This document shows positions 4,266 to 23,525 of a DNA stretch of 64,000 nt, piece after piece. The stretch is taken from contig CAVOKF010000004.1 of NCBI GenBank assembly GCA_963696385.1, positions 32,001 through 96,000 on the forward strand, read 5' to 3'. The notes below the pieces were generated by a model. That model saw nothing but the letters and a program-made list of their open reading frames with translations. It was not told the origin of the DNA and made no database searches. Position numbers and translations under genes: made by a program. Numbering within the stretch: the first letter of the stretch is position 1; every line of letters begins with the position of its first letter. This DNA comes from an uncultured delta proteobacterium. Lineage in GTDB: Bacteria > Myxococcota_A > Polyangia > Polyangiales > Polyangiaceae.

Positions 4266-4432
4266 GCCGGATCGATCCCGACCGTGAGAAGGCCGACCCC
4301 CTTCCAGCGGGGCTGACTGGGGCGGTGGCCGCGTCACCCTCGGGACAGGACCGGGTCACCCGACGCGGATGGCTTTCGCCGTGAAATCCAGTCGCGTGAG
4401 CGTGGCACGAAAATGGGCGTGTTCGAGCGCCC

Positions 4433-6136: not shown

Positions 6137-6201
6137 ACGACCGGCCCCGAGAGCGGCGCGCCGATGCGGCGCCGCGCGGGCGACGTGCGCTTTGAATCTG
6201 T

Positions 6202-6312
6202 TCAAATCGGTTCGCCGATTCAGCGATAACGAACGCCCCTAAGACGCGATATGTTTCCGCGCCCGCTTCCGCGGCTCTTCGTCGACCGACGCACTTTGGG
6301 CTTACTACTCGC
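6202..6312 (+). repeat. 112-bp unit, copy 1 (dif-like core 6232-6259)
   Basis: TCAAATCGGTTCGCC...CCCCTAA-GACGCG-ATATGT...CTACTCGC; identical to 10713-10823. Confidence 0.97.
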
Positions 6313-7798
6313 TGTGACGAGCGGCGAATCCGTGAACGTGAACAGCGTGGACGAGGTGCCCGATTCGGCCTGGTTCACCAACCGACTCGGTGTCCGCCCG
6401 ATGAGCCTCGAGGAGCTGCGGCTGAACGAGTGCAAGAAGGAAGTGCTCCTCGACCCGGATCACACCCCGGACGGTGGGTGGCTCATCGACCAGGGCAAGA
6501 CCAGCGGGTCGACGCCGGGCTTTCGCATGACCGTGCCCGGCAAGGGCAAGTTCCTGGTCAAGGTCGAGGCCACCGGGCTGCCCGAGCGCCAAGTGGCGGC
6601 CACGGTGATCGGCGAGGCCGTCTACTATGCCGTCGGCTACAACGCGACGTGCGAGCAGGCACTGTGGGTCCGACCGTCGATCTTCACCCTGAAACCGGGG
6701 TTGAAGGCCGCACACGGCAACTTCGGGGATTACTACGACTTCGACAAGAAGGCGCTCGACGATCTGTTCGCCAAGTCCAACAAGCACCGCGGGCTGCTTC
6801 GCATCAGCGCCTCCGCGTGGGTGCCGGGATATGTCCTGCAGCAGTTTCGCTACGAGGGGGTGCGAGGCGACGATCCCAACGACGTCATTGCGCATCAGGA
6901 TCGTCGCGAGCTTCGCGCCGCGCGACTGCTCACGGCGTGGATCGATCACTTCGATGCGCGCGAAGGCAATTCGCTCGACACCTGGTTCACCGAAGTGAAA
7001 GGCGGTCCGCCCGACGCGTCGCCCGGTCACGTCGTCCACCTTCAGATGGGCACGAGCGCCGCTCTTGGATCGGTGTGGGACTGGGACCCCATCTCACGAC
7101 GGCTCGGCTACGCCTACGTCGTCGATTGGGGGGACATCGCGGTGGATTTCTTCACGCTGGGGGCCACCACGCGCGTCTGGGAACAGATCCAGAAGGTCCC
7201 GGGCCATGAGATGTTCGGCTACTTCAACGTCAAAGACTTCGATCCCGAGCGGTGGAAAAACGAATACCCGAATCCGGCGTTCTCGCGGATGACCGAACGC
7301 GACGGCGCGTGGATGGCGCGCATCCTGGCGCGGTTCACGCCGCCCATGGTCCGAACCTTGGTCGAGATGGCGAAGCTCGACGACCCAGCCAACACCGATT
7401 ATTTGCAGAGCGTCCTCGACGGCCGGTTGGCCAAGATTGTCGATCGCTACCTCACGCGGGTGTCGCCAATCGCCCAGGTGCGGGTCGATGGGCCGAGCCG
7501 GCTCTGTGGAGTCGACCTCGCGGAGTGGCGCGGCTTGCGCGATCCGTGGGCGTTTCGCTACGAGGCGCGGCTCCTTTCCGGACCGTGGTTGAACGTGGAA
7601 AGGCAACCGGGGGCACAGATCTGCGTGACGCTGCCCCACGTGGCTGCGGACGGCGGTGTCCCGGACGACGCGCCCGCGCGCTACGTTCGCGTGCGCATCC
7701 AAGACGGGGTGGCCACCGGACCGCTCGTGGCGCATCTGTACGATTTGGGGCCGGTGCGGGGCTACCGCCTGGCCGGCCTCGAGCGGCCCGATCGGTGA
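6313..7798 (+). pseudogene. 5'-truncated paralog of the 8931..10670 lipoprotein (atypical kinase-like)
   Basis: NVNSVDEVPDSAWFTNR lies ~90 aa into the paralog but directly follows the repeat here; the ORF-track start at 6251 is inside the repeat. Confidence 0.8.
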
Positions 7799-7897
7799 CA
7801 TCCCGGCACCCCCCGCGCGAGGCGATCCGATTTTGCCGGTGGGTGCGGGCGCCAAGAGCCGGCCCGCGAGGCGCGCGGGTGGGGGTGTTGGCCGCTC

Positions 7898-8767
7898 TCA
7901 GAATCGTCCCTGCAGCGTCAGCGAACCTCCTCCGGGCGCTGGCGCGACGCCCACCCATACGGCCGGAGCCTCCGCTTTGTGCCGATGAAGGTGCGGCACG
8001 AGAATCCCCACGGCCGATCCTGCTAACGATCCCGCAATGACGTCGCTCGGGAAGTGCTCGCCCGCGCGGACGCGCTCGTAGCTGACGAACGCGGTGAGCG
8101 CCGTGGCGATGCCGAGCGTGATCCACGGGCGAGGCGAGCGGGGCGATCGCACGAAGGCGAGGTACGTCGCCGTCGCGCCGATGGCCGAGACGCCTGCGGC
8201 GTGCCCGGAGAAGAAGGAAAGGCCGAGATCGGTGGAGTTGCAGCTGGCCGGCAGCGTGGTCGCGCCGTTCATCTCGCAGTTCTTGTAGTCGATGGGACGG
8301 GGCCGGCGAACGGCGATCTTGGTGATGTCCGTGAGTGTGAGCGCGAGCGATCCGGACTCCGCGTACATGAACGCGTCGACCAGCAATGCGTCGGTGCCGT
8401 CGCGAAAGCCCGACAGAACGGGATCGACCACCGCGAACCCGATGGCCGTATACAGGCCGATGTTCGAGTACGTCGCCGCGTGCGGATCGATCGTCTGCGT
8501 CACCGCGATTCGGTCGAAAAACAGAAGTTGGCTCACCGAGGCCGTCGGGACTGGGGGTTTGATCTCGCCGGTCCCGAGAACCAGCCCGAGCAAGCCCGCG
8601 AACCCGAAGCCCGTCACCGTCATCACGCCGTCGGAGACCGGGTCGAGGGAGAAGTGCTGTCCTTCCTCGAGGGGCGGGGAATCGGCCCGTGCGACGGACG
8701 CCGACAAGAGGACGGCTCCCAGAAAGCCCAGAGCCACCTGGCGTGACGATGTCGCAAACGTCCTCAT
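7898..8767 (-). CDS. PAP2-family phosphatase with signal peptide
   Basis: Motifs KIAVRRPRP, SFFSGH, RVRAGEHFPSDV. Confidence 0.9.
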   Translation of the reverse strand: MRTFATSSRQVALGFLGAVLLSASVARADSPPLEEGQHFSLDPVSDGVMTVTGFGFAGLLGLVLGTGEIKPPVPTASVSQLLFFDRIAVTQTIDPHAATYSNIGLYTAIGFAVVDPVLSGFRDGTDALLVDAFMYAESGSLALTLTDITKIAVRRPRPIDYKNCEMNGATTLPASCNSTDLGLSFFSGHAAGVSAIGATATYLAFVRSPRSPRPWITLGIATALTAFVSYERVRAGEHFPSDVIAGSLAGSAVGILVPHLHRHKAEAPAVWVGVAPAPGGGSLTLQGRF

Positions 8768-8930
8768 GGTGCTTGAGACGCTGGCGGCACCGGATTGTGA
8801 CGTCTCCGAAAGCCAATCGTGTGCCCACCCGATGGGCACGACGATCGCCTGCACCGCGTGACGCGCCGGCCGCACCGCGCCTCGCGCCGGACGCGAGCGG
8901 CCGCGTCCGATCTCGGCGAGGCGGGACACC

Positions 8931-10670
8931 TCAGGGCTCCGGCCGCTCCACCCCCGCGAGAAAGTACCCGCGTTTTGGGCCGAGATCGTACAAGGCCGCA
9001 ATGAGCGGCGCCTTCGCGACACCGTCGTCGAGGATCACTCGAACATACCGCGCGGGGGACGCGTCGGGCGGACCCCCGTCTCCGGCCACGTGCGGCAGAC
9101 GGACGCAGATTTCGCCGCCGCCATGCAACTCGACCGGCAGCAGGGCCCCGTTCGGCGCGCGGGCGGTGTAACGGAAGCGCGTGACATCGCACACGGCGCG
9201 CGCCTCGGCCAGGTCGACTCCGCAGAGCCGGTCGAGGCCTTCGACGCGCAGCTCGCCAATCGGCGAAAGCCGTGTCAGATACCGTTCGAGGATCCGTTCG
9301 AGCCGTCCTTCGAGCACGCGCACGAGATGCTGCGTGTTTCTCGGATCCGTGAAACGTGCCATCCCGGCAAACGCGCAAACCGCCTCGGGCGTGAAGCGCG
9401 CCAGGATACGAGCCATCCATGCCCCGTCGCGCTCGGTCATGCGGCTGAATGCCGGGTTCGGATACTGCATCCTCCATTGGTCGGGCACGAAGCTTCGGAC
9501 GTCGAAATTCCGGAACAGCTCGAATCCGGGATCGCCGAGCGGTCGATCCCAAGGGCGTGCCGGAATTCCGAGCGCCAAGAAGTCGGCTGCCATGTCGCCC
9601 CAGTCGACGATATACGCGTAGCCGAGCCGTTCGGTCACCGGTACGTGCCCGTAGTCGGGGCCGAGCGCATCGCTCCAGTCCAAATAGTAATGAACGACGT
9701 GACCCGGCGATCCGTCCGAAGCGACGTTCGGGTCGGCAAACCAAGAGTCCATGCTGTTGGCGTCCCGAGAGTCCCAATGATCGATCCACGCGGCGAGCAA
9801 GCGCGTGGCCCGCAGTTCCCTTCGATTCTCGTGGGCGATCACGTCGTTCGGGTCGTCCGGTCTCGTCCCGTCGTAATGAAAGGGGCCCAGAAGGTGCCCC
9901 GGAATCCATGCCGAGGCGCTCATCCTCACGAGCCCGCCACGCCGCGCGCAAGCCGCCAGGACCTGGTCGAGCGCTTTCGCGTCGAAGTCCTTTTCGTCTT
10001 CCAAAGTGCTGTGCCGGAAATGGAGGCCGGGGCTGAGCTTGAGCGCCGACGGCTTGAAGTACACGACTTGCTCGCAGCTCGCGTTGAAGCCGGCGGCGTC
10101 GTAAATCGCGGCGCCCACCACGGTCGCCGCGGTCGCAAGCTCGGGCTGCGCGGTCCCGTCGGCCTTGAACAGGTACTTGCCTTTGCCGGGGATGTTCACC
10201 CGAAACCCCGGAGTCGCGCCGTCCATTTTGCCACGGTCGATGACCCAGAGGCCGTCGGGCGGGTCCTCGGCGATCAGCAAGGACCGGTCGCACGCACCGA
10301 TCGGCACATCGCCCGGGCCCGGAAGGTGGCCGCCGCGCCGATTCGTGAACCACGCCGAATCGGGCACTTCGTCGACGCTGTTGACGTTCGTGGCCTCTCT
10401 CGCGACGGCCAGGGCGAGCGCGTCGGACATGGGGCGGAGCAGGACGTGATCCATGGCCGTCCAGATCTCGGGCACATCGATCGGCACCGGGGCACAAGAG
10501 ACGTGCCGTGGATCGCGCGCCGTGGGCTGGAGGCGGCAGGGCAGCGTTACGGACTGGAGATCCGAGTCTCTGTCCATCGGGGGGCGCAGCGCAAAGCGTC
10601 GCTCGGTCGGCATGCACGCCGACAGAGCGAGCGCCACGCACGCGAAGCGGACTTCATTCACGTTCGACAT
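8931..10670 (-). CDS. Lipoprotein of unknown function, possible atypical kinase fold
   Basis: Lipobox LSAC; YLFKAD..PE and WIDHWDSRDAN motifs; full-length paralog of 6313..7798. Confidence 0.75.
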   Translation of the reverse strand: MSNVNEVRFACVALALSACMPTERRFALRPPMDRDSDLQSVTLPCRLQPTARDPRHVSCAPVPIDVPEIWTAMDHVLLRPMSDALALAVAREATNVNSVDEVPDSAWFTNRRGGHLPGPGDVPIGACDRSLLIAEDPPDGLWVIDRGKMDGATPGFRVNIPGKGKYLFKADGTAQPELATAATVVGAAIYDAAGFNASCEQVVYFKPSALKLSPGLHFRHSTLEDEKDFDAKALDQVLAACARRGGLVRMSASAWIPGHLLGPFHYDGTRPDDPNDVIAHENRRELRATRLLAAWIDHWDSRDANSMDSWFADPNVASDGSPGHVVHYYLDWSDALGPDYGHVPVTERLGYAYIVDWGDMAADFLALGIPARPWDRPLGDPGFELFRNFDVRSFVPDQWRMQYPNPAFSRMTERDGAWMARILARFTPEAVCAFAGMARFTDPRNTQHLVRVLEGRLERILERYLTRLSPIGELRVEGLDRLCGVDLAEARAVCDVTRFRYTARAPNGALLPVELHGGGEICVRLPHVAGDGGPPDASPARYVRVILDDGVAKAPLIAALYDLGPKRGYFLAGVERPEP

Positions 10671-10711
10671 GATGCCCGAAGGGGCCGCTTCGTGACGATG
10701 CGGTAGCGACG

Positions 10712-10823
10712 CTCAAATCGGTTCGCCGATTCAGCGATAACGAACGCCCCTAAGACGCGATATGTTTCCGCGCCCGCTTCCGCGGCTCTTCGTCGACCGA
10801 CGCACTTTGGGCTTACTACTCGC
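10712..10823 (+). repeat. 112-bp unit, copy 2
   Basis: Identical to copy 1. Confidence 0.97.
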
Positions 10824-10971
10824 TCCCGACGATGACGAGACCGACCGCTGCGACGAGTCCGACCACGACCATGATCGGGTTGTCCAGTGCGGCGCCACAC
10901 CCTCCCAGCATCACGATCCCGCCGAAGAAATAGCAGCCGTTGCGGATCAGCTTCCGTTGCTCCGTGTTCAT
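10816..10971 (-). CDS. Small membrane protein; stop codon supplied by the repeat, probably 3'-truncated
   Basis: MNTEQRKLIRNGCYFFGGIVMLGG..., two hydrophobic segments, GGAGGG upstream. Confidence 0.5.
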   Translation of the reverse strand: MNTEQRKLIRNGCYFFGGIVMLGGCGAALDNPIMVVVGLVAAVGLVIVGSE

Positions 10972-11231
10972 CGGCCCTCCGAAACGATGCCAACGCTTAT
11001 CGTCGGCCTTGTCAACGGCGGCAGATGCGGGCGCGGGGACCCGAGGTTGGCACCCGCGTGCCCCGTCCACTCGCACGCGCGGCACGCCAGCGAGCAACTT
11101 GCGAACGACAACAGCCGGTCCACTTCGGCAGAGTACGCGTTGCCGCGATTATCGCGCGCGTCGTCCGCCACGCGCCCTCCGCCAGTCATCGCCGTTGACG
11201 TCGCCCGGGCGATCGGCCGACCATTGGGGCG

Positions 11232-12464
11232 ATGGGGGATGAGGAGAGGCGAACGGTTTGGATCCTTGGCGCGGGCTTCAGTCGATCGCTCGGCGGCCCG
11301 CTATTGCCCGACCTGCTTTCATCGGCGACGAATAATTTCGTTTCCTCTCTCTATCATAAAAACAAATTCATTGGGGGCCCCCCCGAGGAGCCCGATGACG
11401 TGTACCGCCGCGCGGCCCTCGCGGTGCGCCGCTTGTACGATAAATACGGGGACACAGCTGACCCCGGAATCCGCTTATGGGAGAATGCGGAAGAGTTTTT
11501 AGACCAGCTAGACGCCGCGGCCGAAAACGAGAGCGCTGCCAGTCGGATTTTCCGACCGATGACCTCCGAGCTCAATAATGCCCCCTGGATTTCCGGAGTG
11601 GAGACCCCGGACCTGCGCGACGCGGCGCGACGGCTCGTTGCCGCAGCGTGTTGCGCGTTCCTGCACGGTGCGAATACGAATGAAGAACGCTGGCAGCCGT
11701 ACCAGGCGTGGGCCGCCGACCTAACGTCGTCGGACACGGTCGTGACGTTCAATTACGACCGGGTGTTGGAAACCCTCGGAGGGTTTGACGTCGTGGTGCC
11801 TGCGCCGCCGGAGGTACTCACCTCGCAGGTCGTCCCGCTCGTGCCGCCGCTAGGCGCTAAGCCGAAAGTCTTCAAGCTACACGGCAGCGTCGATTGGCGC
11901 CGTGAACTAGAGAAGCCGGTAAGATACTTGCTAGCGTCGCCCGAATACGCTCTTGAATGCGATGGCGTAAACATCGGAATCGCTACACCGGGCCCAACTA
12001 AGCGTCTAGCGACTCAGGAATTGAGCCGATTGTGGACCGATGCGTGTGAGCATATTCAGCGAGCCGAGGTAATTGTCTTCGTTGGGTACCGCTTCCCGCG
12101 AACCGATGCGGAAGCACGCGGAACGCTTTTGAAGGCGATCAGGGAAAACAAGTCCCCTCATCTCGAGTTGCACATCGTGCTCGGTCCGGATCGGCGAATC
12201 CCGGACGTCGTCCGGCTTCAACAGCTGCTCCGCTACAGAATGGCGAGCGCGGGCCGGAAGGGGCAACGAGTTTTGCCCCCAAGCGCCCAGAGGATGACTG
12301 CCGCGAAGCCCGCAAACGAGACGCGAAATGATTTTCGGCTAATGACCCACGCCCTCTATGCGGAGGACTTCTTCACCGTGTGGGATCGCGACGTCTTGTG
12401 GCCCCCATCAGAGGGGGTAAGCTCAAACGATCGTGTGACCATCGAGCCGTTGCCGCCCGACTGA
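11232..12464 (+). CDS. SIR2-like domain protein (candidate NADase defence effector)
   Basis: ILGAGFS, TFNYD, KLHGSVDW and FVGYRFPxxD motifs. Confidence 0.85.
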   Translation: MGDEERRTVWILGAGFSRSLGGPLLPDLLSSATNNFVSSLYHKNKFIGGPPEEPDDVYRRAALAVRRLYDKYGDTADPGIRLWENAEEFLDQLDAAAENESAASRIFRPMTSELNNAPWISGVETPDLRDAARRLVAAACCAFLHGANTNEERWQPYQAWAADLTSSDTVVTFNYDRVLETLGGFDVVVPAPPEVLTSQVVPLVPPLGAKPKVFKLHGSVDWRRELEKPVRYLLASPEYALECDGVNIGIATPGPTKRLATQELSRLWTDACEHIQRAEVIVFVGYRFPRTDAEARGTLLKAIRENKSPHLELHIVLGPDRRIPDVVRLQQLLRYRMASAGRKGQRVLPPSAQRMTAAKPANETRNDFRLMTHALYAEDFFTVWDRDVLWPPSEGVSSNDRVTIEPLPPD

Positions 12465-12477
12465 CGGTGTCCGGGCG

Positions 12478-12589
12478 GCGAGTAGGCGGCGCAAAGCTTG
12501 TCGGCCGACGAAGAGACGCGGAAACCGCCGCGGTCACATAAAAGGCCTTTGGGGCGCTCGTTGTCATTGAAAGCGCCGTCCCAATTGAG
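12478..12589 (-). repeat. 112-bp unit, copy 3 (diverged, inverted)
   Basis: Reverse complement CTCAATTGGG...GCCCCAAA-GGCCTT-TTATGTGACC...CTACTCGC; same length and colinear with copy 2. Confidence 0.92.
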
Positions 12590-12876
12590 CGCACGGAAAT
12601 CGTCCCCTTTGGCAACGACATCCTGGCCGGCACGCCCCGGGCGATGCCCTACAGCGGGGTAAGCCGGATGAAGTTTCAGGCGAATGCCGTGGCTGGCCGA
12701 AAGGAGAAGTCTGTCTTGAAGCCCAACTGCACGTTGAGTCTCGTCCCCTCGCCCGAGGGCGTTCTCGCTCGCTGCTCGGAGAAAAGCACCTCGTCGCACT
12801 TGACGGTCACCGATTTGGCTCGTTCTTCGGTGTTGTTGGATGGCGAAGCGCAAGCAAATTCAATCGACCCGGGACT

Positions 12877-14058
12877 TCACTGGCATTCAGCTGAGTTCGG
12901 AGGATTTGCGCCGGTCGCGCTGTAGGACGCACATATGGCCGCTGAGAACGCGCCCGTCACATGGTCAACTTTGACGGTGTTGATTATGTTCTGCGCATTC
13001 CAGGGGCTTAAATTCAGATCGAAGGTCCCTATGATTTCCGATGCCGTTACAGTTGAGACTGTGACGGTACCGCTTACGGACTGCTCGCATGCCGTTGGAT
13101 TGTCGCTTTGGTCGTAGGCGGCACCGTAAAACGCCCCCGCTCCTATCGTCGCCCCCGCTGAGGTTAGGACGTCGAACGTGCCTGGCGTCAACGATGAGTT
13201 TGTTACAATGTCGAGGTACAAGACAGTTTGGTTGGGGGAGGGCCCGCTGTCGTCTTCCGTCCAGGCGTTTCCAGGTCCGCCATCTGGGTTTAATGCGCAT
13301 AAGTCGGCGAGGTTTGCGATGGATACGTTGGAGAGAACGATGCTCGTCACGTTGGTATCGGGAGCTAACCCGGGATTCCCCACGGGGACATTGCCGGCGA
13401 AGGCACTCTGGATGATCAACTCCTGCCCGCCGATCGTGCCAGTAGCGCTGTTCGCGGAGGCTTCGCTCGATCCGTCGGATGCATCGGCGGCATCCGGTCC
13501 TGCGTCACAATTCGGCTCCAGAATGTACGAACATTCGCCGCTGCTCGGAATGCACGAGCCCGGCGTCAATTCGCAAGTCGTTGGCGGAGTCACGCACGCG
13601 GTGGATCCCCCTGTCGCTGTCGTGCAGCCCCCGCACGGATCCTTTACTGTGCAGGTAGTCGCCTCACCATCCGCGTCGCTGGCGTCCGGGGTGCCATCGA
13701 TTACATCGGGCTCGATTACGTCCAATACAGTCGCATCGCGATTGGCGTCTGCTTCCCCGTCTGTGTCCCCATCTGCTTCGCCGTCCGTCGTTGCATCCTT
13801 GCCCCCGTCCAATTCACTCGACAACGAGCTTGAACTGGTCGTTGAGCTTGAACTCGACGACGAGCTTGAAGGTTCAGGGGGCGGCGGAGGCGAAGGGCTT
13901 CCGCAAGCAGCTAGGACCTCAAAATGTGTGGTCACGACCGCGAGTGCGGCGATTCGCCACGGTTCCAGCCTCACGAAATGCCTCCCGCTGGAGCTATCGA
14001 CGCGGAAAACCGACATTGGCGCCAAGATCGCACAAAGTGGACCAGGCTCAGGTGGCAC
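12877..14058 (-). CDS. Secreted or lipoprotein with Pro/Ser linker and Asp/Cys-rich repeats
   Basis: LAACG lipobox-like motif, poly-S tract, Cys-rich segment; visibly lower GC than flanks. Confidence 0.65.
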   Translation of the reverse strand: MPPEPGPLCAILAPMSVFRVDSSSGRHFVRLEPWRIAALAVVTTHFEVLAACGSPSPPPPPEPSSSSSSSSSTTSSSSLSSELDGGKDATTDGEADGDTDGEADANRDATVLDVIEPDVIDGTPDASDADGEATTCTVKDPCGGCTTATGGSTACVTPPTTCELTPGSCIPSSGECSYILEPNCDAGPDAADASDGSSEASANSATGTIGGQELIIQSAFAGNVPVGNPGLAPDTNVTSIVLSNVSIANLADLCALNPDGGPGNAWTEDDSGPSPNQTVLYLDIVTNSSLTPGTFDVLTSAGATIGAGAFYGAAYDQSDNPTACEQSVSGTVTVSTVTASEIIGTFDLNLSPWNAQNIINTVKVDHVTGAFSAAICASYSATGANPPNSAECQ

Positions 14059-14440
14059 GCTTGCAACAAAATAAGTTCAACAATATTGGAAAAATCGTGC
14101 GAGCTCAGACTTCAGACGGTCCGAGAGCGGACTTGGCGGAGCCTGAATGTGGCACACAAAGCTACATGTGGCGCTGGGCGCTACCTTGTGGCTCCGTGCA
14201 CCACACGTGTGCGGGGGGGCAGTGTCCGCTACCTGGCTTTGATCGGCCACATTCCCCGCTGTACTTCGGGCATGTATCCGTTTCGTACGGCTCCCGAGCT
14301 CTCCCAGGCCATCCCCGGCCCCCCTGTCCTGGCTCCTTGGGCTGTCCGCCGGCTTCAGGCAGCGGCGCAATAGTCATGATGAAGGCCGCCGAGCACGGGG
14401 ATGGCCTCGACCGGGCCAGCATACTTGGCCAAACGGGACT

Positions 14441-14563
14441 CTCAAATCGGTTCGCCGATTCAGCGATAACGAACGCCCCTAAGACGCGATTAAGACGCGA
14501 TATGTTTCCGCGGTGGCTTCCGCGTCTCTTCGTCGACCGACGTGCTTTGGGCTTACTACTCGC
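14441..14563 (+). repeat. 112-bp unit, copy 4, with a duplication in the core
   Basis: AAGACGCGAT-T-AAGACGCGAT at 14481-14501. Confidence 0.95.
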
Positions 14564-15420
14564 CAGCGAGCTGCCGTGCTGCTCGTCGAGCGGCTTGCAA
14601 ACCTGCTTGCCACGTCCCCGGACCTGCCGGAGCTACGACCGTGACGGTCTTGCGAAACGGCAAAGCGCCGCGCTGGAGCGAGCACGAGGCGTCGAGTGAG
14701 CACTTCGTCGGCGGCATCTCGCCCCTCTGGATGTTCGACTACCAGCTTCAGGGGCTCTTCTCAGTCGTGGAACTCGCGCGAGCCAGGAGTCGAGAGGAGC
14801 CCCACCTCTACGGCGACGTTCTGCGGCGCGCCGCGGAAGTGGCGCTCATCGGCGCGCTCGGCTTCTTCGAGGCGTTTTGCAAACACCAGTTTGCGGCGCT
14901 TTTGACGCTGCATGCCCCTCTGCTCGTCGACTTCGCCAACCGGCGTCAGGAGGCGAGCCTCCGGCTCTCGGCACTCGCTTCAGCCGCCGGAGAACTCGAC
15001 GTCAAGATCGGCTTCATCGTCGCCGAGTCGTACGACTTCGGATCGGCCAAGCAAATCAATGGACTCTTCCGCGATCTCCTCGAGTGCTCGCCGTTGCCGA
15101 AAGATGAGGGGGACGAGCTCGACGCCATCCTTCGCAAGCGCCACCTCATCGTGCACCACGGCGGTATTGTTACAACTGAATCGGCTCGGGCAAAGGCACC
15201 GGTCCTTCCGTCTGGCCAGGCGTTTCGAGACGTCGTCGGGGTCGAGCCCGACGAGTACCACGACATCGCGGACTTCCTGCGGCTCTCGGCCGTCAAGGTA
15301 GCCGTCTGCACGGTGCAAGCCCTCAAGCGTCGCACGCGCGACCTATCTGATCTTGCCGTCGACCGACAGCAAGACGTGGAGCTTCTGCTCAGGGCCGTGT
15401 GGCATCAGCTCGACGCGTGA
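14564..15420 (+). CDS. HEPN-like (RxxxxH) protein, true start uncertain or truncated
   Basis: IGALGFFEAFCK helix and RKRHLIVHHGG motif. Confidence 0.6.
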
Positions 15421-15449
15421 ACGAGCCCCCTCGACCTTTGGGCCCTGCT

Positions 15450-15683
15450 CTACTTGCGTCGCTTTCGTCCAGGGCCTGCAGGCCATGAAACCTGCTTGGA
15501 GCGTTCGAGCCATCCCTCGGTGACGGCCTCGCGCACCTTCACCCGCAGAAGCTCCTCGGCGGCCTCGGTGCGGTTCTTTCCGAACAGGCCGGTCTGCACC
15601 AGTGCGTCGAGCGCCGAGAGCACCTCGGGCGTCGTCGACAGGTGCAGTTTCTTGGTCCCGACCGAGTTGGGCCCGCGTGCCAT
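15450..15683 (-). CDS. Small ribbon-helix-helix-like DNA-binding protein
   Basis: KKLHLSTTPEVLSALDALVQTGLFGKNRTEAAEELLR. Confidence 0.6.
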   Translation of the reverse strand: MARGPNSVGTKKLHLSTTPEVLSALDALVQTGLFGKNRTEAAEELLRVKVREAVTEGWLERSKQVSWPAGPGRKRRK

Positions 15684-15715
15684 GATCCAAGTAGATCCTG
15701 ATCTAGGATCTTGAT

Positions 15716-16161
15716 ATGCTCAAGCCCGTGAGCGCCGATTTGGCCGGCCAGAGGGTCGGATCCCTCGACGATGCGCGGACTGCGTTGGTGCTGCCGCCAC
15801 GTCCCGAACCGCGATCTGCGCGCAGAACGCTGCGCGTCGGCAGCCGCACGCTCACCGTCACGCCGGTCTTCGACACGTACTGGCGCTTCGCCTGCCAGCG
15901 GCAGGAGGTCTTCCACCGGCGAGCCGCGGGCGACCCCCCCGCCGTGGACGGACGATCCCATTCTTGGCGGGCACCGTTTCACGAATGCCTACCGCGCTTC
16001 GGATCGGGTGAGCCAGTTCCTCATCCGCCACGTGCTCTACGCCGGCAGTCAGGACGAAGAGGAGGTTTTCTTCCGTTGCCTGCTCTTCAAGATTTTTAAC
16101 CGGATCGATACGTGGGAGCACCTTAGGCTTCACGTCGGCGAGGTGCGCTGGAACAGCTACT
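15716..16161 (+). pseudogene. Nucleotide-kinase-associated / 5-hmdU DNA kinase helical-domain protein, frameshifted at the C-run ~15934-15940 and 3'-truncated by repeat copy 5
   Basis: TPVFDTYWRFACQRQEVFHRR joins PPWTDDPILGGHRFTNAYRASDRVSQFLI...LLFKIFNRIDTW. Confidence 0.75.
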
Positions 16162-16210
16162 CTCAAATCGGTTCGCCGCTCGGTGACAACGGAAGCCCCT
16201 AAGACGCGAT
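16162..16210 (+). repeat. 112-bp unit, copy 5 (left half, interrupted in the core by IS4)
   Basis: CTCAAATCGGTTCGCCG...CCCCTAAGACGCGAT directly followed by the IS4 end CATAGGTAGG. Confidence 0.9.
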
Positions 16211-16591
16211 CATAGGTAGGATCTTTATTTCCCGAGTGATCTCGATCACTTACGTGCATAGTGCACGAATTGGGTAGTCAAAGGCATCGGGGATTCTCTA
16301 GACGCTGTTGTGAGACAACGCGAAAGGAGACCCCCGATGCACGGATCAAACAGTACACGCGCCGGAGTCGGCGTGTATGCGAAACGGCTTACGGAAGTAC
16401 TCGGCGAGGAGCAGGTGACCGCGATCGCGAGACGTAGCGGCTGGCTACGGCGAGTGCGCAAGGTGATGCCGCTGGCGATGGTCGTGGCGGTGCTGTCGAC
16501 GCTCGGGTCGGGCCACGCCAAGTGGTTGGCCGATATTCTGCGGACGTTCCGGAAATTCGCGGGCCTTTCGCTGCGATATAAGCCCTTTCAC
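16211..16591 (+). mobile_element. 5' fragment of the IS4 element at 40770..42245
   Basis: Near-identical to 40770-41150; ends abruptly at repeat copy 6. Confidence 0.95.
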
Positions 16592-16702
16592 CAAATCGGT
16601 TCGCCGATTCAGCGATAACGAACGCCCCTAAGACGCGATATGTTTCCGCGGGGTCGTCCGCGGCTCTTCGTCGACCGACGCACTTTTGGGCTTACTACTC
16701 GC
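16592..16702 (+). repeat. 112-bp unit, copy 6
   Basis: CAAATCGGTTCGCC...CTACTCGC; left half identical to copy 1, right half variant. Confidence 0.95.
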
Positions 16703-17034
16703 CGAACAGAATCCACGGGCGGTCGAGACTATGCTTCGTGAGCAGCGCGACCACGTCGGTGCATTTGCTTCAGCTTCAGCGCAGCCATGATCGCCTGATA
16801 CCACTCGCTGCCGTACTCGATGCCCGTGTTGCCTTTCTTATCCGAAGACCGGAACGACTTCAGATTGCCGCCGCTTGCGTCGGTGAGCAGGTTGCTGAAC
16901 GCCTCGGCCAGCTTCGCGTCGCGGCTGTCGTGGCTGATGAACACAAGCGGCTTGGAGGACTGAACGAGCGACGATTCGCCGTTCGCCGCCTCGTTTGTCT
17001 TCCCGTTTCCCGCTTCCTGCTTCCGCTTCGCCAT
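16703..17034 (-). pseudogene. TIR-domain protein, frameshifted at ~16770 and truncated by repeat copy 6
   Basis: VFISHDSRD...GIEYGSEWY; another frame continues TDVVALLTKHSLDRPWILF and stops at the repeat. Confidence 0.8.
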
Positions 17035-17150
17035 GCCCGCCGCCCCCGGGTGCCGTGATCCCGCACGATCGCACAACCGGACGCATCGGGTAAGCCCTGG
17101 CCAAGATCGGTTCTCGGCATACCCGTCAAGTGTTCAGTATGCTCCCGCCA

Positions 17151-17345
17151 ATGCCCGACAACACCCGTCCGCCGCGCAACCTCCACATCGACGACCAGCC
17201 GAACCTCGGCACCCGCGCGCTGATGACGGCCGTCGACGAGCTGGCCAAGGCGCACCGGCTTGCCGGAGCCCGCGTCGCCTACAAGCGCAACGCCAAGGGC
17301 GAGCACGTCGTCGCGGTCATCTTCACCGGCTTCGAGCGCACGTAG
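17151..17345 (+). CDS. Small hypothetical protein
   Basis: GC3-biased 64-aa ORF MPDNTRPPRNLHIDDQPNLG... Confidence 0.4.
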   Translation: MPDNTRPPRNLHIDDQPNLGTRALMTAVDELAKAHRLAGARVAYKRNAKGEHVVAVIFTGFERT

Positions 17346-17498
17346 CGGCCCGAATCCGTATTCCGGTGCGCCGGAGGCGAAACCCGGTTTCGCCATGCGG
17401 CCCGCATCGGCGCGCAGAGCCCTGCAGCCAAGATAGGCGATCGCTCCGATCGGAACCCGGGTTCCGGTCCCGGTTGGTCCGCCGACGGCCGCTCCGAC

Positions 17499-17577
17499 TG
17501 ACAACGAGCGCCCCAAAGGCCTTTTATGTGACCGCGGCGGTTTCCGCGTCTCTTCGTCGGCCGACAAGCTTTGCGCC
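17499..17577 (+). repeat. 112-bp unit, copy 7 (partial; IS66 begins near its right end)
   Basis: TGACAACGAGCGCCCCAAAGGCCTTTTATGTG...CTTTGCGCC identical to copy 3. Confidence 0.92.
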
Positions 17578-17638
17578 GTAACCGTCCGGCCGGGCCCGCA
17601 CTTGATTTAGGGGCAGAAAGCGCGGTGCGATCGGGGGC

Positions 17639-17959
17639 ATGGGACGCGAGCGTCGGTCGCGAGTCTGGTGGTCAAGCCGAGTGGCGCGTTGGCGGCGCAG
17701 CGGGCTTACGGCGCGGCAATTCGCCGAGAGCGAAGGGCTTTCGGTGTTCTCGCTTCGGTGGTGGTCGAGCCAGTTGGCTCGTGATAACCGTGCGGAGCAC
17801 GGTGCGTCGGCGATCGAGCCGATCGAGATCACCGTCGAGGGGCGTCAGGCCGGCCGCGAACTGGTCGAAGTCGTGGTCGGCGCGGCGACGATCCGCTGCG
17901 AGCGGGGGACGGACGTCGGATACATTGCGGCGCTGGTTCGTGCGATCGCGGGTGCATGA
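17639..17959 (+). CDS. tnpA: IS66 TnpA
   Basis: WRRSGLTARQFAESEGLS HTH. Confidence 0.85.
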   Translation: MGRERRSRVWWSSRVARWRRSGLTARQFAESEGLSVFSLRWWSSQLARDNRAEHGASAIEPIEITVEGRQAGRELVEVVVGAATIRCERGTDVGYIAALVRAIAGA

Positions 17960-18321
17960 CGGTGTTCGGTTTCTCGCCTCACGTTCGCGTGTACCTCGCG
18001 TCGCAGCCGGTCGACATGCGTGCAGGCCACGACAGTCTGTTCGCGATCGTGAAGAGCTGGGACCTGAATCCGTTCAGCGGGGACCTGTTTGCGTTCGTTG
18101 GGAAACGACGAGACCGGGTGAAGATTTTGGTGTGGCACCGCGGGGGATTTTTATTGGTCTACAAGCGGTTGGAAAGAAATCGATTTCGGATCCCTGCGAT
18201 CCAGCCGGGAACGCGGACGGCGATGCTCGATGCGACGCAGCTGGCGATGTTGCTCGATGGCATCGACGTCCAACACGTTCAACGCCCCGCGCTGTGGCAG
18301 CCTCCGGGTCTGGCGCGCTGA
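17956..18321 (+). CDS. tnpB: IS66 TnpB accessory protein
   Basis: PVDMRAGHDSL...KILVWHRGGFLLVYKRLE. Confidence 0.92.
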   Translation: MTVFGFSPHVRVYLASQPVDMRAGHDSLFAIVKSWDLNPFSGDLFAFVGKRRDRVKILVWHRGGFLLVYKRLERNRFRIPAIQPGTRTAMLDATQLAMLLDGIDVQHVQRPALWQPPGLAR

Positions 18322-18428
18322 GCCCCGTCGCGGCCCTGTGTGTCCATTGGACACTTTGTCGCTGAAATCGTCGTCGGCCCCCACGCTAAGCCTTTTAATC
18401 TGCGCGGCGATGGTGCACGAAAAGGATC

Positions 18429-20033
18429 GTGGTTGATGCGCGAGACGTCCGCATCGCGAAGCTTGTGGAGCTGCGCAAGCGCGCCGAAGAGCGTGAGCGA
18501 CAACTGGGCGAGATCGTCGCGCAGCAGCAGACGCTGATCGCTGCGCAGCAGCAACTCATCGCCGAGCTGCAGCGTCGACTGTCCGAGCAAGATGCGCAGC
18601 AGAAGGCGCGCGCCGAAGAGATGAAGGCCGAGATCGACCGGCTGGAGCGGCAACTGTTGGGCCCGAAGACCGAGCGGACCCACGTTCCGCCGATCGACGC
18701 CGAGCTTCGCAACACCGAACCGATGACCGACGAAGAGCGCGCGCGCCGTCGCGAAGAGATTGCACGCAAGCGACGCGAACGCGCACTCGCGAAGAACGCC
18801 GCGATGGCCGTCGAGCAGGTCGAGTACCCGGTACCCGAATCGATGAAGCCGTGCGCTCATTGTGGCGGCGTGCATGCGCGAGCTCTCGAGCCCGAGCAGA
18901 GCACGACGTACGAGTACAAGCCGGGTCACTTCATCCGTCGTGTGCACAAGCGGCAGAAGCTCGCATGCAGCTGCGGCCAGTCCATCGTGACGGCGCCGCC
19001 GCCTCCGAAGCTCGTCGTCGGTGGACAGTACGGCTTCGGGTTCGCCGCATTCCTCATCGTGGAGAAGTGCGCCGACTCGATTCCCATTCATCGCATTGAG
19101 AAACGATTCGGCCGACTTGGGATCCCGATCTCGCGCAGCACGATGAACGATCTCGTTCACAAGGCTGCCGAGATTGTTCGACCGCTCGTCGCTCGACTGC
19201 AGACGCGAATCGCGGCTCTCGAAGTCGTGCTCGCCGACGAGACCTCGATGCGCTTGCAGGACCGTCCCAAGCGCGGCTTTGTCTGGGTGTTTCACGGTCA
19301 CGATGAAGTCAGCGGCGGCAAGCTTGTTCTGTATGCCTTCGCCGTCGATCGAAGCGGCGACACGCCGGCGAAGATCCTGGGTGGCACTCGCGGCACTCTC
19401 GTGGTGGACGGATACACGGGGTACAACCAGGTGACCGACCCGCTCGGACGCGCGCGCGGCGGATGCTGGAGCCACATGCGCAGAAAGCTCTTCGAGGCGC
19501 GCTCCACCCGTGCGGCCGAGGACATCGACCCCGCGCTCGGGATCATCCGCGAGATCTTTCGTGTCGAACACGACGCGACCGAGCAGAAGATCGTCCGCAC
19601 TCCGGCCCATCTCGAGCTGCGAAATGCGCGTAGCGCTCCGCTGGTCGAGCAATTCTTTCAGTGGGCCGAACACAAGAAGGTCGAGGTCCTTCCGAAGGGC
19701 CCGCTCGGCGAGGCGCTCGGTTACGCGATTAACCAACGCGCTCGACTCGAGCTTTTCTTGTCGGATCCGCGTATTCCGATGCACAACAACGGCTCAGAGT
19801 CCCGCTTACGCGTTATTGCTCTGGCTCGCCATACGTACCTTTTCTTCGGACATCCACTCGCGGGCAAAAACTTCGCGGGGCTCTACTCGCTCGTCGGCTC
19901 CTGCATCGCCAACGAAGTCGAGCCGACGGAGTATCTCACCGACGTACTTGCGCGAGTCCGCGACGCAACGACCGACGAGCAGCTCGACGCGCTGCTACCC
20001 GATCGGTGGGCGCCCCACGGTCCAGCGCCCTGA
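18429..20033 (+). CDS. tnpC: IS66 TnpC DDE transposase
   Basis: Coiled coil, CAHCGG Zn finger, ADET, VDGYTGY, CWSHMRRK. Confidence 0.93.
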   Translation: MVDARDVRIAKLVELRKRAEERERQLGEIVAQQQTLIAAQQQLIAELQRRLSEQDAQQKARAEEMKAEIDRLERQLLGPKTERTHVPPIDAELRNTEPMTDEERARRREEIARKRRERALAKNAAMAVEQVEYPVPESMKPCAHCGGVHARALEPEQSTTYEYKPGHFIRRVHKRQKLACSCGQSIVTAPPPPKLVVGGQYGFGFAAFLIVEKCADSIPIHRIEKRFGRLGIPISRSTMNDLVHKAAEIVRPLVARLQTRIAALEVVLADETSMRLQDRPKRGFVWVFHGHDEVSGGKLVLYAFAVDRSGDTPAKILGGTRGTLVVDGYTGYNQVTDPLGRARGGCWSHMRRKLFEARSTRAAEDIDPALGIIREIFRVEHDATEQKIVRTPAHLELRNARSAPLVEQFFQWAEHKKVEVLPKGPLGEALGYAINQRARLELFLSDPRIPMHNNGSESRLRVIALARHTYLFFGHPLAGKNFAGLYSLVGSCIANEVEPTEYLTDVLARVRDATTDEQLDALLPDRWAPHGPAP

Positions 20034-20416
20034 ACCACTGGGGCGCAGCGCAACTCCCGCAATCCCCGAACGCGTCGCGCGTCGTCACGTCGATGCAGAG
20101 TGTCGCCCGAGTCCGCGACGCGACCCCAGCACGACGTGCCGCTATCCATACGAGCGCAGCGCCTCGCCTCTGCCCCCCTGAACCACTGGCCTGAAGTCGC
20201 CAAGCATGGTCGCGCTCTGTTGCGGCCGCGGCAACGACGTCAACGCGACGATGCTCTTGGCGTGCTCGCCAACAATCGCGACGAGTACTGGGACAAGAAG
20301 CTCGCCGCCGATACTTGGCAGGGGCCTCATCGCGGGAAAGGCCCGCCCCCTGAACCATTCTTGGACTCAGGTCAACAGCGGGGCGCGCCGGACGCTTACG
20401 TGGAAAGGGTGCAGTT

Positions 20417-20904
20417 GTGACCGATGTAGAAGCTACAGCAGCCGCGAGAATCGCACTTCGGTGTCTCATCGAAGAGACAGCTTCAATGGCTGCCGCAAAC
20501 AGCATGACGCCCGAGGCCCTGCGAGGCATCGCCTATTATGACATGTCACGCGATGCCCCGATTCTTGCGCTGGACGCATTTGGAAAGGCAACACAGGTAG
20601 TCACCTCGCTTCCTGAGTTTTTGGCGCGTTTTGACGCCCAGGACGTCACGCGTATTGTCATACAGTTTGTATACGAATATTACGCCCGCAGTAACAGCAT
20701 CCTTTACGACGATGTTGTCTTTGAAGCCGTGTGGTCTGACTTCACGGCAGAAATCCAAGAGCCCCTGTGGGTGACGCGAGGAGTCGCCAACGTCAGAAAC
20801 TTCACGAGCGATAACCACGCACTGGCGCTGGGGGACGGCGTAGCGATCCGAGGGCGAAGTAACGACGAGCTCACCGCCCTGGGTTTTAGCGGTGCCGTTC
20901 TGGA
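20417..20904 (+). pseudogene. Hypothetical passenger gene 3'-truncated by repeat copy 8, preceded by a VERVQL* integrase remnant (20400-20420)
   Basis: Lower-GC ORF runs into the repeat; VERVQL* matches the end of the 50579..51677 recombinase. Confidence 0.6.
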
Positions 20905-21016
20905 CTCAAATCGGTTCGCCATTACAGCGACGGCGGAAGCCCCTAACGGGTTATATGTGACCGCCGCGGTTTCCGCGGCTCTTCGTTGATCGATACGCTT
21001 TCGACCGGCTACTCGC
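20905..21016 (+). repeat. 112-bp unit, copy 8 (diverged)
   Basis: CTCAAATCGGTTCGCC...GCCCCTAA-CGGGTT-ATATGTGACC...CTACTCGC; exactly 112 bp. Confidence 0.93.
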
Positions 21017-21218
21017 TCGCAAGAAGACGCGCAACGTGACGAAGGGGAAAGGCGGTACGATGGTGGTGCGCGGGGTCGCACTCGCCCTCATCGTGACGTC
21101 GAAAACCTTCCGCAAGCTGCGCGGTTACGTCGCAATGCCCAAGCTCGTCGCAGCCCTCCGCGCTCACGACGCCACGCTCAGCTCCACGTCCGTTGAGGAC
21201 TCGACGAAGACCGCGTAA
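21017..21218 (+). pseudogene. C-terminal remnant of an IS256-family transposase
   Basis: RKKTRNVTKGKGGTMVVRGVALAL...FRKLRGYVAMPKLVAAL resembles the IS256 C-terminus. Confidence 0.65.
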
Positions 21219-21267
21219 TTCGTTGCTCGCCGCCACCCAAGCGGCCGGGACCAAGCCCAAGGCGACC

Positions 21268-21440
21268 ATGGGAATGTCAGACTTCTACCGAGGCCTGCGT
21301 GAGAGGATCGGACCCGACCTGCTGCTCATTCCGGGCGTCGCCGCGGTCATTCGTGACGACGACGGGCGGTTCCTCGTGCAGCAGAGGCACGACGGGTCGT
21401 GGAGCCTTCCGGCTGGGGCGGTCGAACCCGGTGAAACCCC
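21268..21440 (+). pseudogene. NUDIX hydrolase 5' fragment
   Basis: GVAAVIRDDDGRFLVQQRHDGSWSLPAGAVEPGETP; Nudix box cut. Confidence 0.8.
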
Positions 21441-21493
21441 GCACGTCCGGTGGTGTGGGAGAGGCCCGGTGAACCCGCCGGCCCTATCCCGAT
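21439..21493 (+). ncRNA. Group II intron 3' remnant (half of domain V plus domain VI)
   Basis: CCGCACGTCCGGTGGTGTGGGAG...CCCTATCCCGAT. Confidence 0.65.
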
Positions 21494-21622
21494 TCCGCCT
21501 CGCCGGGTCGGGTCGGTCACAAAACGTCGGATCCACCGGGTCAAAAAAGGTCGGCTCGGCGTGGCCGTCTACAGCCCGACCGTCCTTCGCCTGAGGACAC
21601 GCTTCCGGTGACGCGTTCAGGG

Positions 21623-23525
21623 TCAGCTCCCGAGCCCGCGGTCGAGATCCGGACGAACGACGAGTCGGCCGCTTGCATCGCGAGAGATCACGACCGACTT
21701 GCCTTGCATGGCGCGCAGCGACGTCGTGGTATCCATCACGCCCAAGCGCGAACCGTCCGAAATGACGGCGCACCAGGAGCCACCGGGTGCCGCGCGGATC
21801 TCCAAGCGTCCGCGGAAGCGCTCCGGCAGGCGTCCGACAAATGTCTGCCCCAAGCTCGCAGCCATTTCGTCTCCTACCGCCCGTCGCTCGCGTTCGCGTA
21901 GCGCAGCAAGCCGACTCGGATCGTCGGGCGCGACGCCGAGCTGGCGCAGCGTTTCACGGCGACTCTGCACAGCGAGGCGCAGTTCCGCCCCGAAGCCGTA
22001 GGGCGCCAGGGTCGACGCGTCGACGCGATCGAGCCACACGGGGCCGAGATAACGAATTTGGTCGGCAAGCGACAGCGGCTCCTTACGAAAGAACAGGCGA
22101 TGCTTCGGAGGTGTCGTGTCGCCCGGTGCCGCGCTTGCAGCTGCTCGAGGAGGTCCAGCGGCAGCGTCCAGGCGTTGGGAGCGGCGGGCGTCGCCAGTCC
22201 GAGACGCTCGAGTTCGCGCAGGCGCCGACCGGCGGCGCGAGCGGTCGCGTCAGCGGCCTCGGCATCGAGCATGTACAGGCCGGCGCGCGCGCGGGCCACC
22301 TCCGCGATGTGCCCGTCGACCGGCCGGATGGCGCGCTCGGGTTGACTCGTCACGGACACGATGTCGCCCGGACGCAGAATCCTCGGCGGACCGCGGGTCG
22401 AGCTGGACATGGACCGCGTGGCCCGTTGGTCTCAATGACGGCGTACAGCCGCGCTTTGAGCTCGTCGGACAAACCCTTGCGCGCGACACGCCCCGTCAAG
22501 ACACCGTCGTCCCCCGCGGTGCCGAGGTCCATCGCCTGCCCTTCGCCTACGATCCGATATCGGGCCGGGTCCCCTTGCACGGCGGCATGAAGCTGCTTCA
22601 AGATGTCGCCTCGGGAACCCAGGGCGCGAAGCTCGGTTTGCCATCCCGCCTGGAGCGACCACGTCGATGGCGAGACGCGCTCCGCGAGCCGCACTGCCGC
22701 CAGGTGCTCGAGCCGCGCGACCAGTGTCGAGTCGTCGATCCACCCGGGCGGCTGGCGAGACCGGACCTCGATGCGGTTGTCGACCGCGCGCCGCTCGAGC
22801 TCGCGAGCGAGCGAGGTGAAACGCTCTTGGGTGATCTCCCAGGCATAGGCCCGCTGGATATCGAGGTCATGCCGCGGCCCGAGCTCCTCGGTCGCGATCT
22901 CCTGCGCCGACCAGCGCAAGCCGTTCGAGATGTACCCACGGTCGAGTCTGAGCTCGCGCCCGGTGCGGTCGACGCCCTGGATCACGATGTGCGCATGGGG
23001 ATGATCGGTGTCGAAATGGTTGACGGCCAACCACTCGAGCTTGCGATCGAGATCGCGCTCGACCCGCACAATCAAACGCCGAACGTACGCCGTGAGGTCG
23101 AGCTCCGCGGCATCTTCCGGGGACACGATCACACGAAACTGGTGCCGCTCCCCGGGGCGGGGTTGATCGAAGGTCTCGACGCGCGCCGGTCCGTCGTCGG
23201 TGTACGGCACGCCCTCGGAGCCGTCCTTCTCGACCCCGTCGCGCTCGATGTACCGTAGGTGCAGGGCGGCCGCCTTCGCGCCACCTGTCCCCATGCGCGC
23301 GACGTGCGCCTTGACGACCACGCGTCGCGCCGTCGCATCCGGTCGTCGGACCGAGACCCGTGAGCGTACTGCCGCACGTCGTGCGGCGCCGGCGCGGCGC
23401 ACGATCCGCGACAGAAGCGCGCCGCGAAACGACCCTGCGCCGCTCCGCGATGTCGATTTTCGCCCTCCGCCCATCCGAGGCCGTAAAATAGGGAGATCGT
23501 CCGGGTCGTTCCCGAGTGGATCCAC
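21623..23525 (-). pseudogene. VirD2-like MOBP relaxase with DUF3363-type C-terminus; at least two frameshifts
   Basis: HLRYIERDGV, HQFRVIVSPED, HFDTDHPHAHIVI; C-terminal WLDR...RRETLRQLG in other frames. Confidence 0.85.

Follow-up and report, generated by a model that had tools for sequence, protein, structure and literature searches.

The stretch of DNA analysed here (the window; 64,000 nucleotides, C4:32001-96000) belongs to the genome of an uncultured delta proteobacterium of the Polyangiaceae (assembly GCA_963696385.1; 6.94 Mb, 66% GC, 8 contigs); positions elsewhere in this genome are given with their contig. The window carries the body of an IS91/ISCR-like rolling-circle element, nine copies of a repeated unit of about 110 nucleotides, and a complete and a truncated copy of an insertion sequence (IS) of the IS4 family. 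We describe the insertion of this IS at one register of the unit core, and the short duplications present at the same register, which may be scars of its excision. Copies of the IS were collected over the whole genome by blastn, setting aside one weak 51-bp match and the second high-scoring segment pair of the C2:103798 fragment. Units were searched in the genome with an nhmmer profile made from the copies of the window, and target-motif shares were obtained as IUPAC motif counts. The comparison material consisted of the sister genome G003, JGI metagenome contigs and the runs X4, X9 and X10; the runs containing the window region were soil and peat metagenomes. The window showed the following features.

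4322-6202, plus strand: body of the IS91/ISCR-like rolling-circle element, with the Y2 transposase gene at 4433-6136 and then a 66-nt tail (Pfam Y2_Tnp, Zn_Tnp_IS91)
6203-6312, plus strand: unit copy 1, directly after the transposase tail (nhmmer)
10714-10823, plus strand: unit copy 2, with intact core (nhmmer)
12478-12587, minus strand: unit copy 3, core variant AAGGCCTTTT, in opposite orientation (nhmmer)
14443-14563, plus strand: unit copy 4, of 121 nt instead of 110 owing to an 11-bp duplication (nhmmer, C4:46443-46563, profile positions 1-110)
14481-14501, plus strand: duplication of copy 4, a putative excision scar; as an 11-bp tandem repeat it starts at 14480 (sequence)
16164-16210, plus strand: left half of unit copy 5, ending in AAGACGCGAT (nhmmer, positions 1-48)
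16211-16591, plus strand: truncated IS, positions 1-381, 99.5% identical to the complete copy (blastn)
16592-16702, plus strand: unit copy 6, complete, its outer left boundary CAAATC adjoining the truncated IS (nhmmer)
17474-17578, plus strand: unit copy 7, its last ~9 nt removed by an IS66-family element (nhmmer)
17573-20399, plus strand: the IS66-family element (TnpB_IS66, DDE_Tnp_IS66), with copies of 99.6-99.8% identity at C4:1140413-1143239 and C7:160550-163375
20907-21016, plus strand: unit copy 8, core variant AACGGGTTAT (nhmmer)
40770-42245, plus strand: complete IS, with the duplication TGTACGCGCT at 40760-40769 and 42246-42255 (blastn, flanks)
40869-42209, plus strand: transposase frame of the complete IS, with Lys for the Glu of YREK (Pfam, NCBIfam)
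49333-49456, minus strand: unit copy 9, with a duplication at 49396-49416 (nhmmer; X9 contig)
51964-51985, unstranded: exact 11-bp tandem duplication, on the minus strand CCT|AACAACGGCA-A-AACAACGGCA (C4:83964), kept outside the statistics (sequence); it lies beside CCT|A, its 10-mer ends in A instead of T, and it is a possible off-consensus scar

The IS was 1476 bp long, with the ends CATAGGTAGG...CCAACTTATG and a single reading frame of 437-446 codons, whose product matched Pfam DDE_Tnp_1 (PF01609; E 7e-14) and reached 171.8 bits against the NCBIfam IS4 model NF033592, above the cut-off of 115. The Y-(2)-R-(3)-E-(6)-K signature (YRLRWQVELLFKEFK) was intact in 11 of 12 full-length copies, all of which have the catalytic Glu that is replaced by Lys in the window copy at 40770-42245. 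The ends (CATAGGTAGGATCTT) start with CAT and have T at position 15, and these features together with the size match the ISH8 row in Table 1 of De Palmenaer et al. (2008, PMC2266710), where this subgroup is listed with 1400-1800 bp, 5′-CAT ends, T at position 15 and 10-bp direct repeats. Judged from its sequence, the IS is therefore an ISH8-like member of the IS4 family, the subgroup being placed by end and size features alone. Among 41 relatives, strong matches to the IS were confined to this genome and G003; a search for related loci with the transposase as query gave 4 close loci, and more than 1000 relatives of the transposase were present in metagenome protein sets, none of them bearing an IS name.

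Choice of target by the insertion sequence

The genome contained 20 IS loci, 12 near-full copies and 8 fragments, of which 7 retained the left IS end. Exact 10-bp target duplications, of the length of about one helical turn that characterises the IS4 family, flanked 9 of the 12 full copies, including the window copy, on both sides of which the 10-bp duplication described in the initial annotation was found; the other three showed 10 bp with an extra T, a 386-bp repeat and a chimeric structure, respectively. Ten of the 20 loci adjoined the unit core, ...CCCCT|AAGACGCGAT|ATG... or a variant of it, at the identical base; seven had one orientation and three the opposite. Since the flanks of these ten loci shared only matches of unit size (94-122 nt) or a tnpA remnant (113 nt), save for the 386-bp repeat belonging to one locus itself, the unit-inserted copies represent separate events. 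One of the IS copies, C4:1146326, was located between the halves of two different units. The exact 10-bp duplications at unit insertions were AACGGGTTAT (twice), the complement of AACGGGTTAT (once) and AAGACGCGAT (once), and those at five non-unit insertions were TGTACGCGCT, AGGGCCTTCT, AGCTGCCGCT, AATGCGCGTT and ATACGCAACT, while a sixth non-unit copy had GGGGCGGGCT with an additional T at the right junction.

The same register was hit outside this genome. G003 contained at least three junctions of the unit core with the IS (L034, L026 and L051), and a contig of run X10 provided one more. Among 44 JGI metagenome loci that have the left half of the unit followed by AAGACGCGAT, 38 were intact, 4 were joined to an IS end, 1 carried a scar and 1 reached the contig end. 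In copy 5 of the window, as had been noted initially, AAGACGCGAT at 16201-16210 is followed directly by the left IS end CATAGGTAGG at 16211; copy 5 is nevertheless not a simple insertion, since another unit, a complete one (16592-16702), comes immediately after the IS fragment (positions 1-381, 16211-16591).

Some individual junctions differed from the others. On both sides of the IS copy at C7:1434520-1435995 lay an exact direct repeat of 386 bp, whose right boundary is the canonical position in the unit core (...AAGACGCGAT|ATG). By its sequence this repeat looks like a very long target duplication, and such duplications are reported for IS1549 and IS1634 in PMC2266710. In G003, locus L050 (one IS end) and locus L054 (the opposite end) had only 8 flank bases in common (AATGGACA), which suggests an 8-bp duplication if both belong to the same copy. 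At the C2:137386 junction and at locus L047, the right IS ends showed one extra base before the duplicated 10-mer (T and A, respectively), and this base may come from the donor flank, carried along by the IS. The flanks of the copy at C7:1416005-1417480 (L012) resembled a tRNA gene in its 3′ part (T-arm-like GGTTCGAGTCC), and ARAGORN detected no tRNA at this interrupted locus (C7:1417480).

The initial annotation had proposed nnnACGCGnT as the target pattern, which did not hold in general, ACGCG being present in only 2 of the 8 distinct duplicated 10-mers of this genome. These eight had A at position 1 in six cases and T at position 10 in all, with T before and A after the duplicated bases and often CC two bases upstream, so that the shared target is T|A-N8-T|A, often preceded by CC. 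TA accounts for 1.3% of dinucleotide positions in this genome. We counted 1191 sites of the form T|A-N8-T|A, of which 49 (4.1%) were within units, and 163 sites of a strict form with CC on either side, of which 39 (24%) were within units. The share of IS loci in units (10 of 20) was thus higher than both the loose expectation of 4% (P 2e-9) and the strict one of 24% (P 0.01), and the true expected share lies between these values, since only about 3 of 12 non-unit IS sites had the strict form. A sequence preference for a rare motif, multiplied by the repeat, explains most of the bias and leaves a 2- to 12-fold excess.

This excess could reflect a preference for inner bases, DNA structure, a bound protein, or insertions surviving better in repeats than in genes. 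As half of the IS copies lie in units, more than even the strictest motif share predicts, sequence by itself may fall short as an explanation; insertions into repeats are probably also better tolerated than insertions into genes. We considered that the IS might be drawn to the unit beyond its primary sequence, by the rolling-circle end in a hairpin or single-stranded form or by a bound protein such as the Y2 transposase. The 2-fold (strict) to 12-fold (loose) excess and the rarity of the strict motif at non-unit sites fit such a recruitment, as do the palindromes of the unit, e.g., AATCGG-ttcg-CCGATT and paired CCGCGG blocks. Nevertheless, half of the IS loci are outside units, in sites that have the same form, and both orientations occur; single-strand folds of two units were no better than those of shuffled sequences (z -0.35 to -1.4), folding 31 distinct full units to a consensus yielded no more than a helix of 3 bp, and better survival in repeats than in genes could produce an equal excess. 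Recruitment beyond sequence is unlikely. A role of a protein is unnecessary for most of the bias and possible for the 2- to 12-fold excess that is left.

Duplications at the insertion register and their origin

Two of the unit copies in the window carried duplications at the core. Copy 4 reads AAGACGCGAT-T-AAGACGCGAT at 14481-14501 and copy 9 reads AAGATGCGAT-A-AAGATGCGAT on the minus strand at 49396-49416, exactly as first described; each is equally an exact tandem repeat of 11 bp, of TAAGACGCGAT and, on the minus strand, of AAGATGCGATA, respectively. Six units of this genome bore such a duplication, five of them exact. The form 10-mer-T-10-mer was present in three (copy 4 of the window, C2:74073 and C2:103599), 10-mer-A-10-mer in copy 9 and 10-mer-AT-10-mer at C6:60091, while the imperfect case at C7:1383862 had a T spacer and an extra A inside the first copy of the 10-mer. 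Units of G003 added one case with T (L042) and one of 8+10 form (L020). Assembly error is unlikely as the source, since the duplications recur in independent contigs: a short-read contig of X9 spanned the duplication of copy 9 (49376-49981) without any difference, and one unit duplication of the genome was found again in the JGI metagenome contig L078.

The same kind of duplication was also present outside units. Among 29 exact, non-periodic, two-copy tandem duplications of 11 bp in the 6.94-Mb genome, 9 had the form TA-N8-T or A-N8-TA, where base composition predicts 0.6 (P 2e-8). Five of the nine were outside units (P 4e-4), at C1:337554, C4:986182, C4:1097254, C4:1143316 and C7:1383579, and a sixth non-unit case, C5:951548, had T between the copies and G preceding them. 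The site orthologous to C4:986182 in G003 holds a single copy, so that the duplication is the derived state. For unit copies 4 and 9, no G003 orthologue with both flanks was found; at copy 9, G003 keeps the neighbouring gene without the unit. No excess of the motif was observed for duplications at offsets of 10, 12 and 13; at offset 10, A-N8-T was present in 2 of 29, with 1.5 expected. C7:614501 and C7:485384, two single sites, are candidates for duplications off the consensus.

We consider it probable that the hotspot is due to preference for a rare motif and that the duplications are left by cut-and-paste excision of the IS, closed by Ku/LigD end-joining with an added base. The IS would insert via 10-bp staggered cuts at (CC)T|A-N8-T|A sites, and the unit core CCCCT|AAGACGCGAT|ATG and its variants would offer dozens of near-perfect targets, making the unit its main landing pad in either orientation. 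On cut-and-paste departure, two flanks would remain, each with one copy of the 10-bp duplication at its end, and the host Ku/LigD would rejoin them with one base added, rarely two, giving the scar 10-mer + T/A/AT + 10-mer. Addition of A to either 3′ end would yield precisely a spacer of T, A or AT. As 9 of the 12 full IS copies have exact 10-bp repeats and 10+10 duplications are almost absent, the extra base appears to belong to departure and not to insertion, and we infer that the scars arise by excision and the extra base by end-joining. The genome encodes candidates for this repair, with two Ku matches over the cut-off and two matches to the LigD polymerase domain, one of them beside a Ku gene; PMC8068969 describes the addition of templated and non-templated nucleotides by the LigD polymerase. 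With regard to the repeated insertion and excision at the core proposed in the initial annotation, insertion stood, with fixed-register hits at 10 of the 20 loci, in G003 and at 4 of the 44 metagenome loci, and for excision the duplications are compatible evidence.

Several observations weigh against excision followed by end-joining. A contig of run X4 joined 40759 to 42246, skipping 1486 bases; this empty site carries a single copy of the 10-mer, which makes it the pre-insertion allele; it speaks for mobility of the IS and demonstrates no excision. Likewise, no single site was met in all three states (intact, occupied and scarred), and among all contigs of four runs, X4, X9 and X10 included, none bridged a unit scar with an alternative allele or revealed an excision event, contigs ending at the repeats. 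The duplication length is not strictly 10 bp, as seen in the 386-bp repeat, the G003 pair suggesting 8 bp and the junctions with an extra base, so that some scars of 11 or 12 bp could be longer duplications instead of added bases. The extra base was identical to the adjacent flank base in 12 of the 13 scars with one additional base, which makes an added base and a longer duplication indistinguishable; more generally, since T and A flank the site, hairpinned flanks with palindromic additions, duplications of 11-12 bp and addition of one base would all yield the same set of spacers. Most of the scars (6 of 11-12 in the genome) are within units, where a process specific to the unit is possible. 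The IS4-family elements that have been studied, such as Tn5 and Tn10, are not known to leave such scars, and a literature search on bacterial IS excision footprints and end-joining returned no relevant report either way, which does not prove their absence in print. Seven further 10-mer+T/A+10-mer cases of the A-N8-T form (C1:226068, C5:629747, C7:65947, C8:206373, C8:446098, C8:446157 and C8:481982) are embedded in arrays of hexamers (GGTCGR/CGACCT), and their step of 11 nt does not correspond to a whole number of 6-nt repeats. As a separate observation, C5:951548 (preceded by G), C7:614501 and C7:485384, each a single site, lean against both palindromic nucleotides and a plain longer duplication.

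These points have to be set beside other possible sources of the duplications. They might have been made at the unit by its own machinery, the Y2 transposase or another recombinase, through re-initiation or read-through at a nick in the core or through slippage, with the IS just sharing the site. The concentration of half of the scars in units would follow from this, a Y2 transposase gene precedes the unit in 6 of 6 copies, and the core is a breakpoint elsewhere too (five units with a different left half, lone left halves and a 7-bp deletion). However, the same exact 11-bp duplications are present at five non-unit sites whose sole common feature is the IS target form TA-N8-T (P 4e-4), one of which is single-copy in G003, and the duplicated block is precisely the 10 bp of the IS in the same register plus one base; moreover, IS91-family elements are described in PMC13181058 as producing no target duplications. 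An origin in the unit machinery is thus quite improbable. Ordinary slippage or chance tandem repeats, formed without any mobile element, could account for the 20 of 29 non-periodic duplications that do not fit the motif and for the seven cases in hexamer arrays, but would not explain the 9 that fit against 0.6 expected, the lack of such an excess at offsets 10, 12 and 13, or the identical register in six units here and one in G003, and we regard them as a very improbable source of the duplications. Unlikely as well, though less so than either of these, is a bolder version of excision, namely that an IS4-family transposase leaves footprints of eukaryotic style, either by hairpins on the flanks as in hAT/RAG, resolved to palindromic T, A or AT, or by blunt flanks with one base added by Ku/LigD, and that repeated insertions of the element into the end module of the rolling-circle element could disable its ends, as an interference of one transposon with another.

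The repeated unit and its rolling-circle element

The profile gave 93 unit matches in the genome, in both orientations and concentrated near contig ends; 38 of them were near full length and most were solo. A search of 31 genomes from the genus and 401 from the order gave unit matches only in this genome and G003, the two that also carry the IS. In all six copies or large 3′ fragments of the Y2 transposase gene, the unit was located 70-72 bp downstream in the same orientation. The Y2 transposase exceeded the Pfam cut-offs for Y2_Tnp (PF04986, 83.5 bits) and Zn_Tnp_IS91 (PF14319, 62.7 bits) and remained under the NCBIfam equivalog cut-offs of the IS91 model (97 bits vs. 125) and of ISCR clade Ia (282.8 vs. 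925). Element copies at C4:1136018 and C6:131107 aligned from window position 4322 to 6312, that is, to the outer end of the unit. Identity among the Y2-linked copies was 58-98% in the unit and 65-97% in the adjacent 100-nt tail, the latter rising to 84-97% without the C4:1027420 remnant, which retains only about 40 nt of the tail. At the boundary of tail and unit, GTTC (top strand) and TTTG (bottom strand) lie beside a hairpin; palindromes were present in both tail and unit, and no conserved tetranucleotide was found past the outer end of the unit. The IS91-like element had only about 5 left ends in the genome, compared with about 90 unit matches, so that the gene blocks between units are not complete ter-to-ori elements.

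According to PMC13181058 and PMC6218425, IS91 requires its last 82 bp and ISCR1 has an oriIS region of 232 bp; in both, oriIS lies downstream of the transposase gene, in the position taken here by the unit. We conclude that the unit probably belongs to the rolling-circle system as one of its modules, be it as oriIS or as a docking site of ter-like kind; as it is more divergent than the tail and mostly solo, it may be a docking site or ter-like module and not oriIS. The initial annotation had called the core dif-like, a description that was abandoned: the 93 matches lie in both orientations, no inverted pair of arms around a spacer was visible by eye, and the linked gene encodes a Y2 transposase. 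A dif/Xer site, at which Xer tyrosine recombinases act on two inverted arms of ~11 bp around a 6-8-bp spacer and of which a replicon has one (or paired modules), was rejected on copy number and orientations, the 32 tyrosine-recombinase matches of the genome not being beside units, and an integron attC array, whose sites share one orientation beside an IntI integrase, was rejected given units of both orientations within one cluster, with no specific search made for IntI. Rfam returned no match at gathering score in window positions 4000-22000.

The units themselves showed further rearrangements. At C2:75398, C2:119382, C6:48249, C6:58553 and C7:94440, the usual right half of the unit was joined at the core to a different left side shared by the five (...CGCCTATT|ATTTATGT...), which makes the core a recombination breakpoint for more than the IS. 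The unit at C5:731605 had a 7-bp deletion within the core (TAAG|ATGT), and some left halves occurred alone. Four truncated IS copies stopped exactly at the outer boundary of a unit (CAAATC... or GCGAGTAG...), at window 16591/16592, C6:107549, C2:~103658 and C4:1147417; since the rest of the IS is absent from the genome, it seems that the unit, or a segment delimited by it, inserts into the IS or recombines with it. At 6314-8825, starting 2 bases past the outer end of unit copy 1, 2.5 kb were 92.7% identical to C7:712864-715376, where there is no unit, and this may be a chromosomal segment captured or duplicated beside the rolling-circle end. The unit and the gene blocks between its copies are a possible rolling-circle capture system and worth a study of their own.

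Known systems and significance

The IS shares size, CAT ends, 10-bp repeats, a single transposase frame and the YREK signature with the ISH8 subgroup, whose insertions are described by De Palmenaer et al. (2008, PMC2266710) as having no apparent target specificity. The IS studied here, in contrast, clearly prefers T|A-N8-T|A and has a single dominant hotspot. IS231A of Bacillus thuringiensis, another IS4-family element, reportedly prefers targets by sequence plus context and is said to be found within the terminal repeat of Tn4430. It differs in subgroup and host, and its partner is of the Tn3 family whereas ours is an IS91/ISCR-like module; we know of no excision scars described for IS231A in Tn4430. 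With IS91/ISCR, the rolling-circle element has in common a Y2 HUH transposase with a zinc-binding N-terminus and about 180 structured base pairs downstream of the gene, where oriIS sits; the GTTC/TTTG at the boundary of tail and unit may correspond to the tetranucleotide (GTTC or CTTG-like) next to oriIS, which in that family has subterminal palindromes. It differs from them in falling under the NCBIfam cut-offs and in a unit that is more divergent than the tail and mostly solo.

The closest parallels to the putative scars are the footprints of hAT, Mutator and Tol2 elements, in which, as described in PMC2921059 and PMC5499845, both copies of the target duplication are kept with few bases between them after repair by end-joining. 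Those elements are eukaryotic, whereas the host here is bacterial and the spacer is nearly always one base (T or A). The hairpin-on-flank chemistry behind hAT footprints is, to our knowledge, not known for the IS4 family.

A preference of insertion sequences for certain sequences, the ends of other mobile elements among them, is known, and the hotspot itself is a further case of this behaviour; the scars, if true, are the unusual part. With at least 15 hits on one register, from two genomes and metagenome contigs, the hotspot makes a clean natural data set on target choice, and it concerns a very widespread clade of IS4 transposases that has not been studied. Cut-and-paste excision in bacteria is usually invisible, the broken donor being lost or copied back from the sister chromosome. 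If the duplications are indeed excision scars closed by Ku/LigD, they would provide a sequence signature with which past visits of an IS and bacterial end-joining can be counted in genomes, and the donor-cleavage chemistry of this IS4 subgroup would become directly testable. If an IS4-family transposase does leave footprints on excision, the genome would retain a readable record of past transposon visits.

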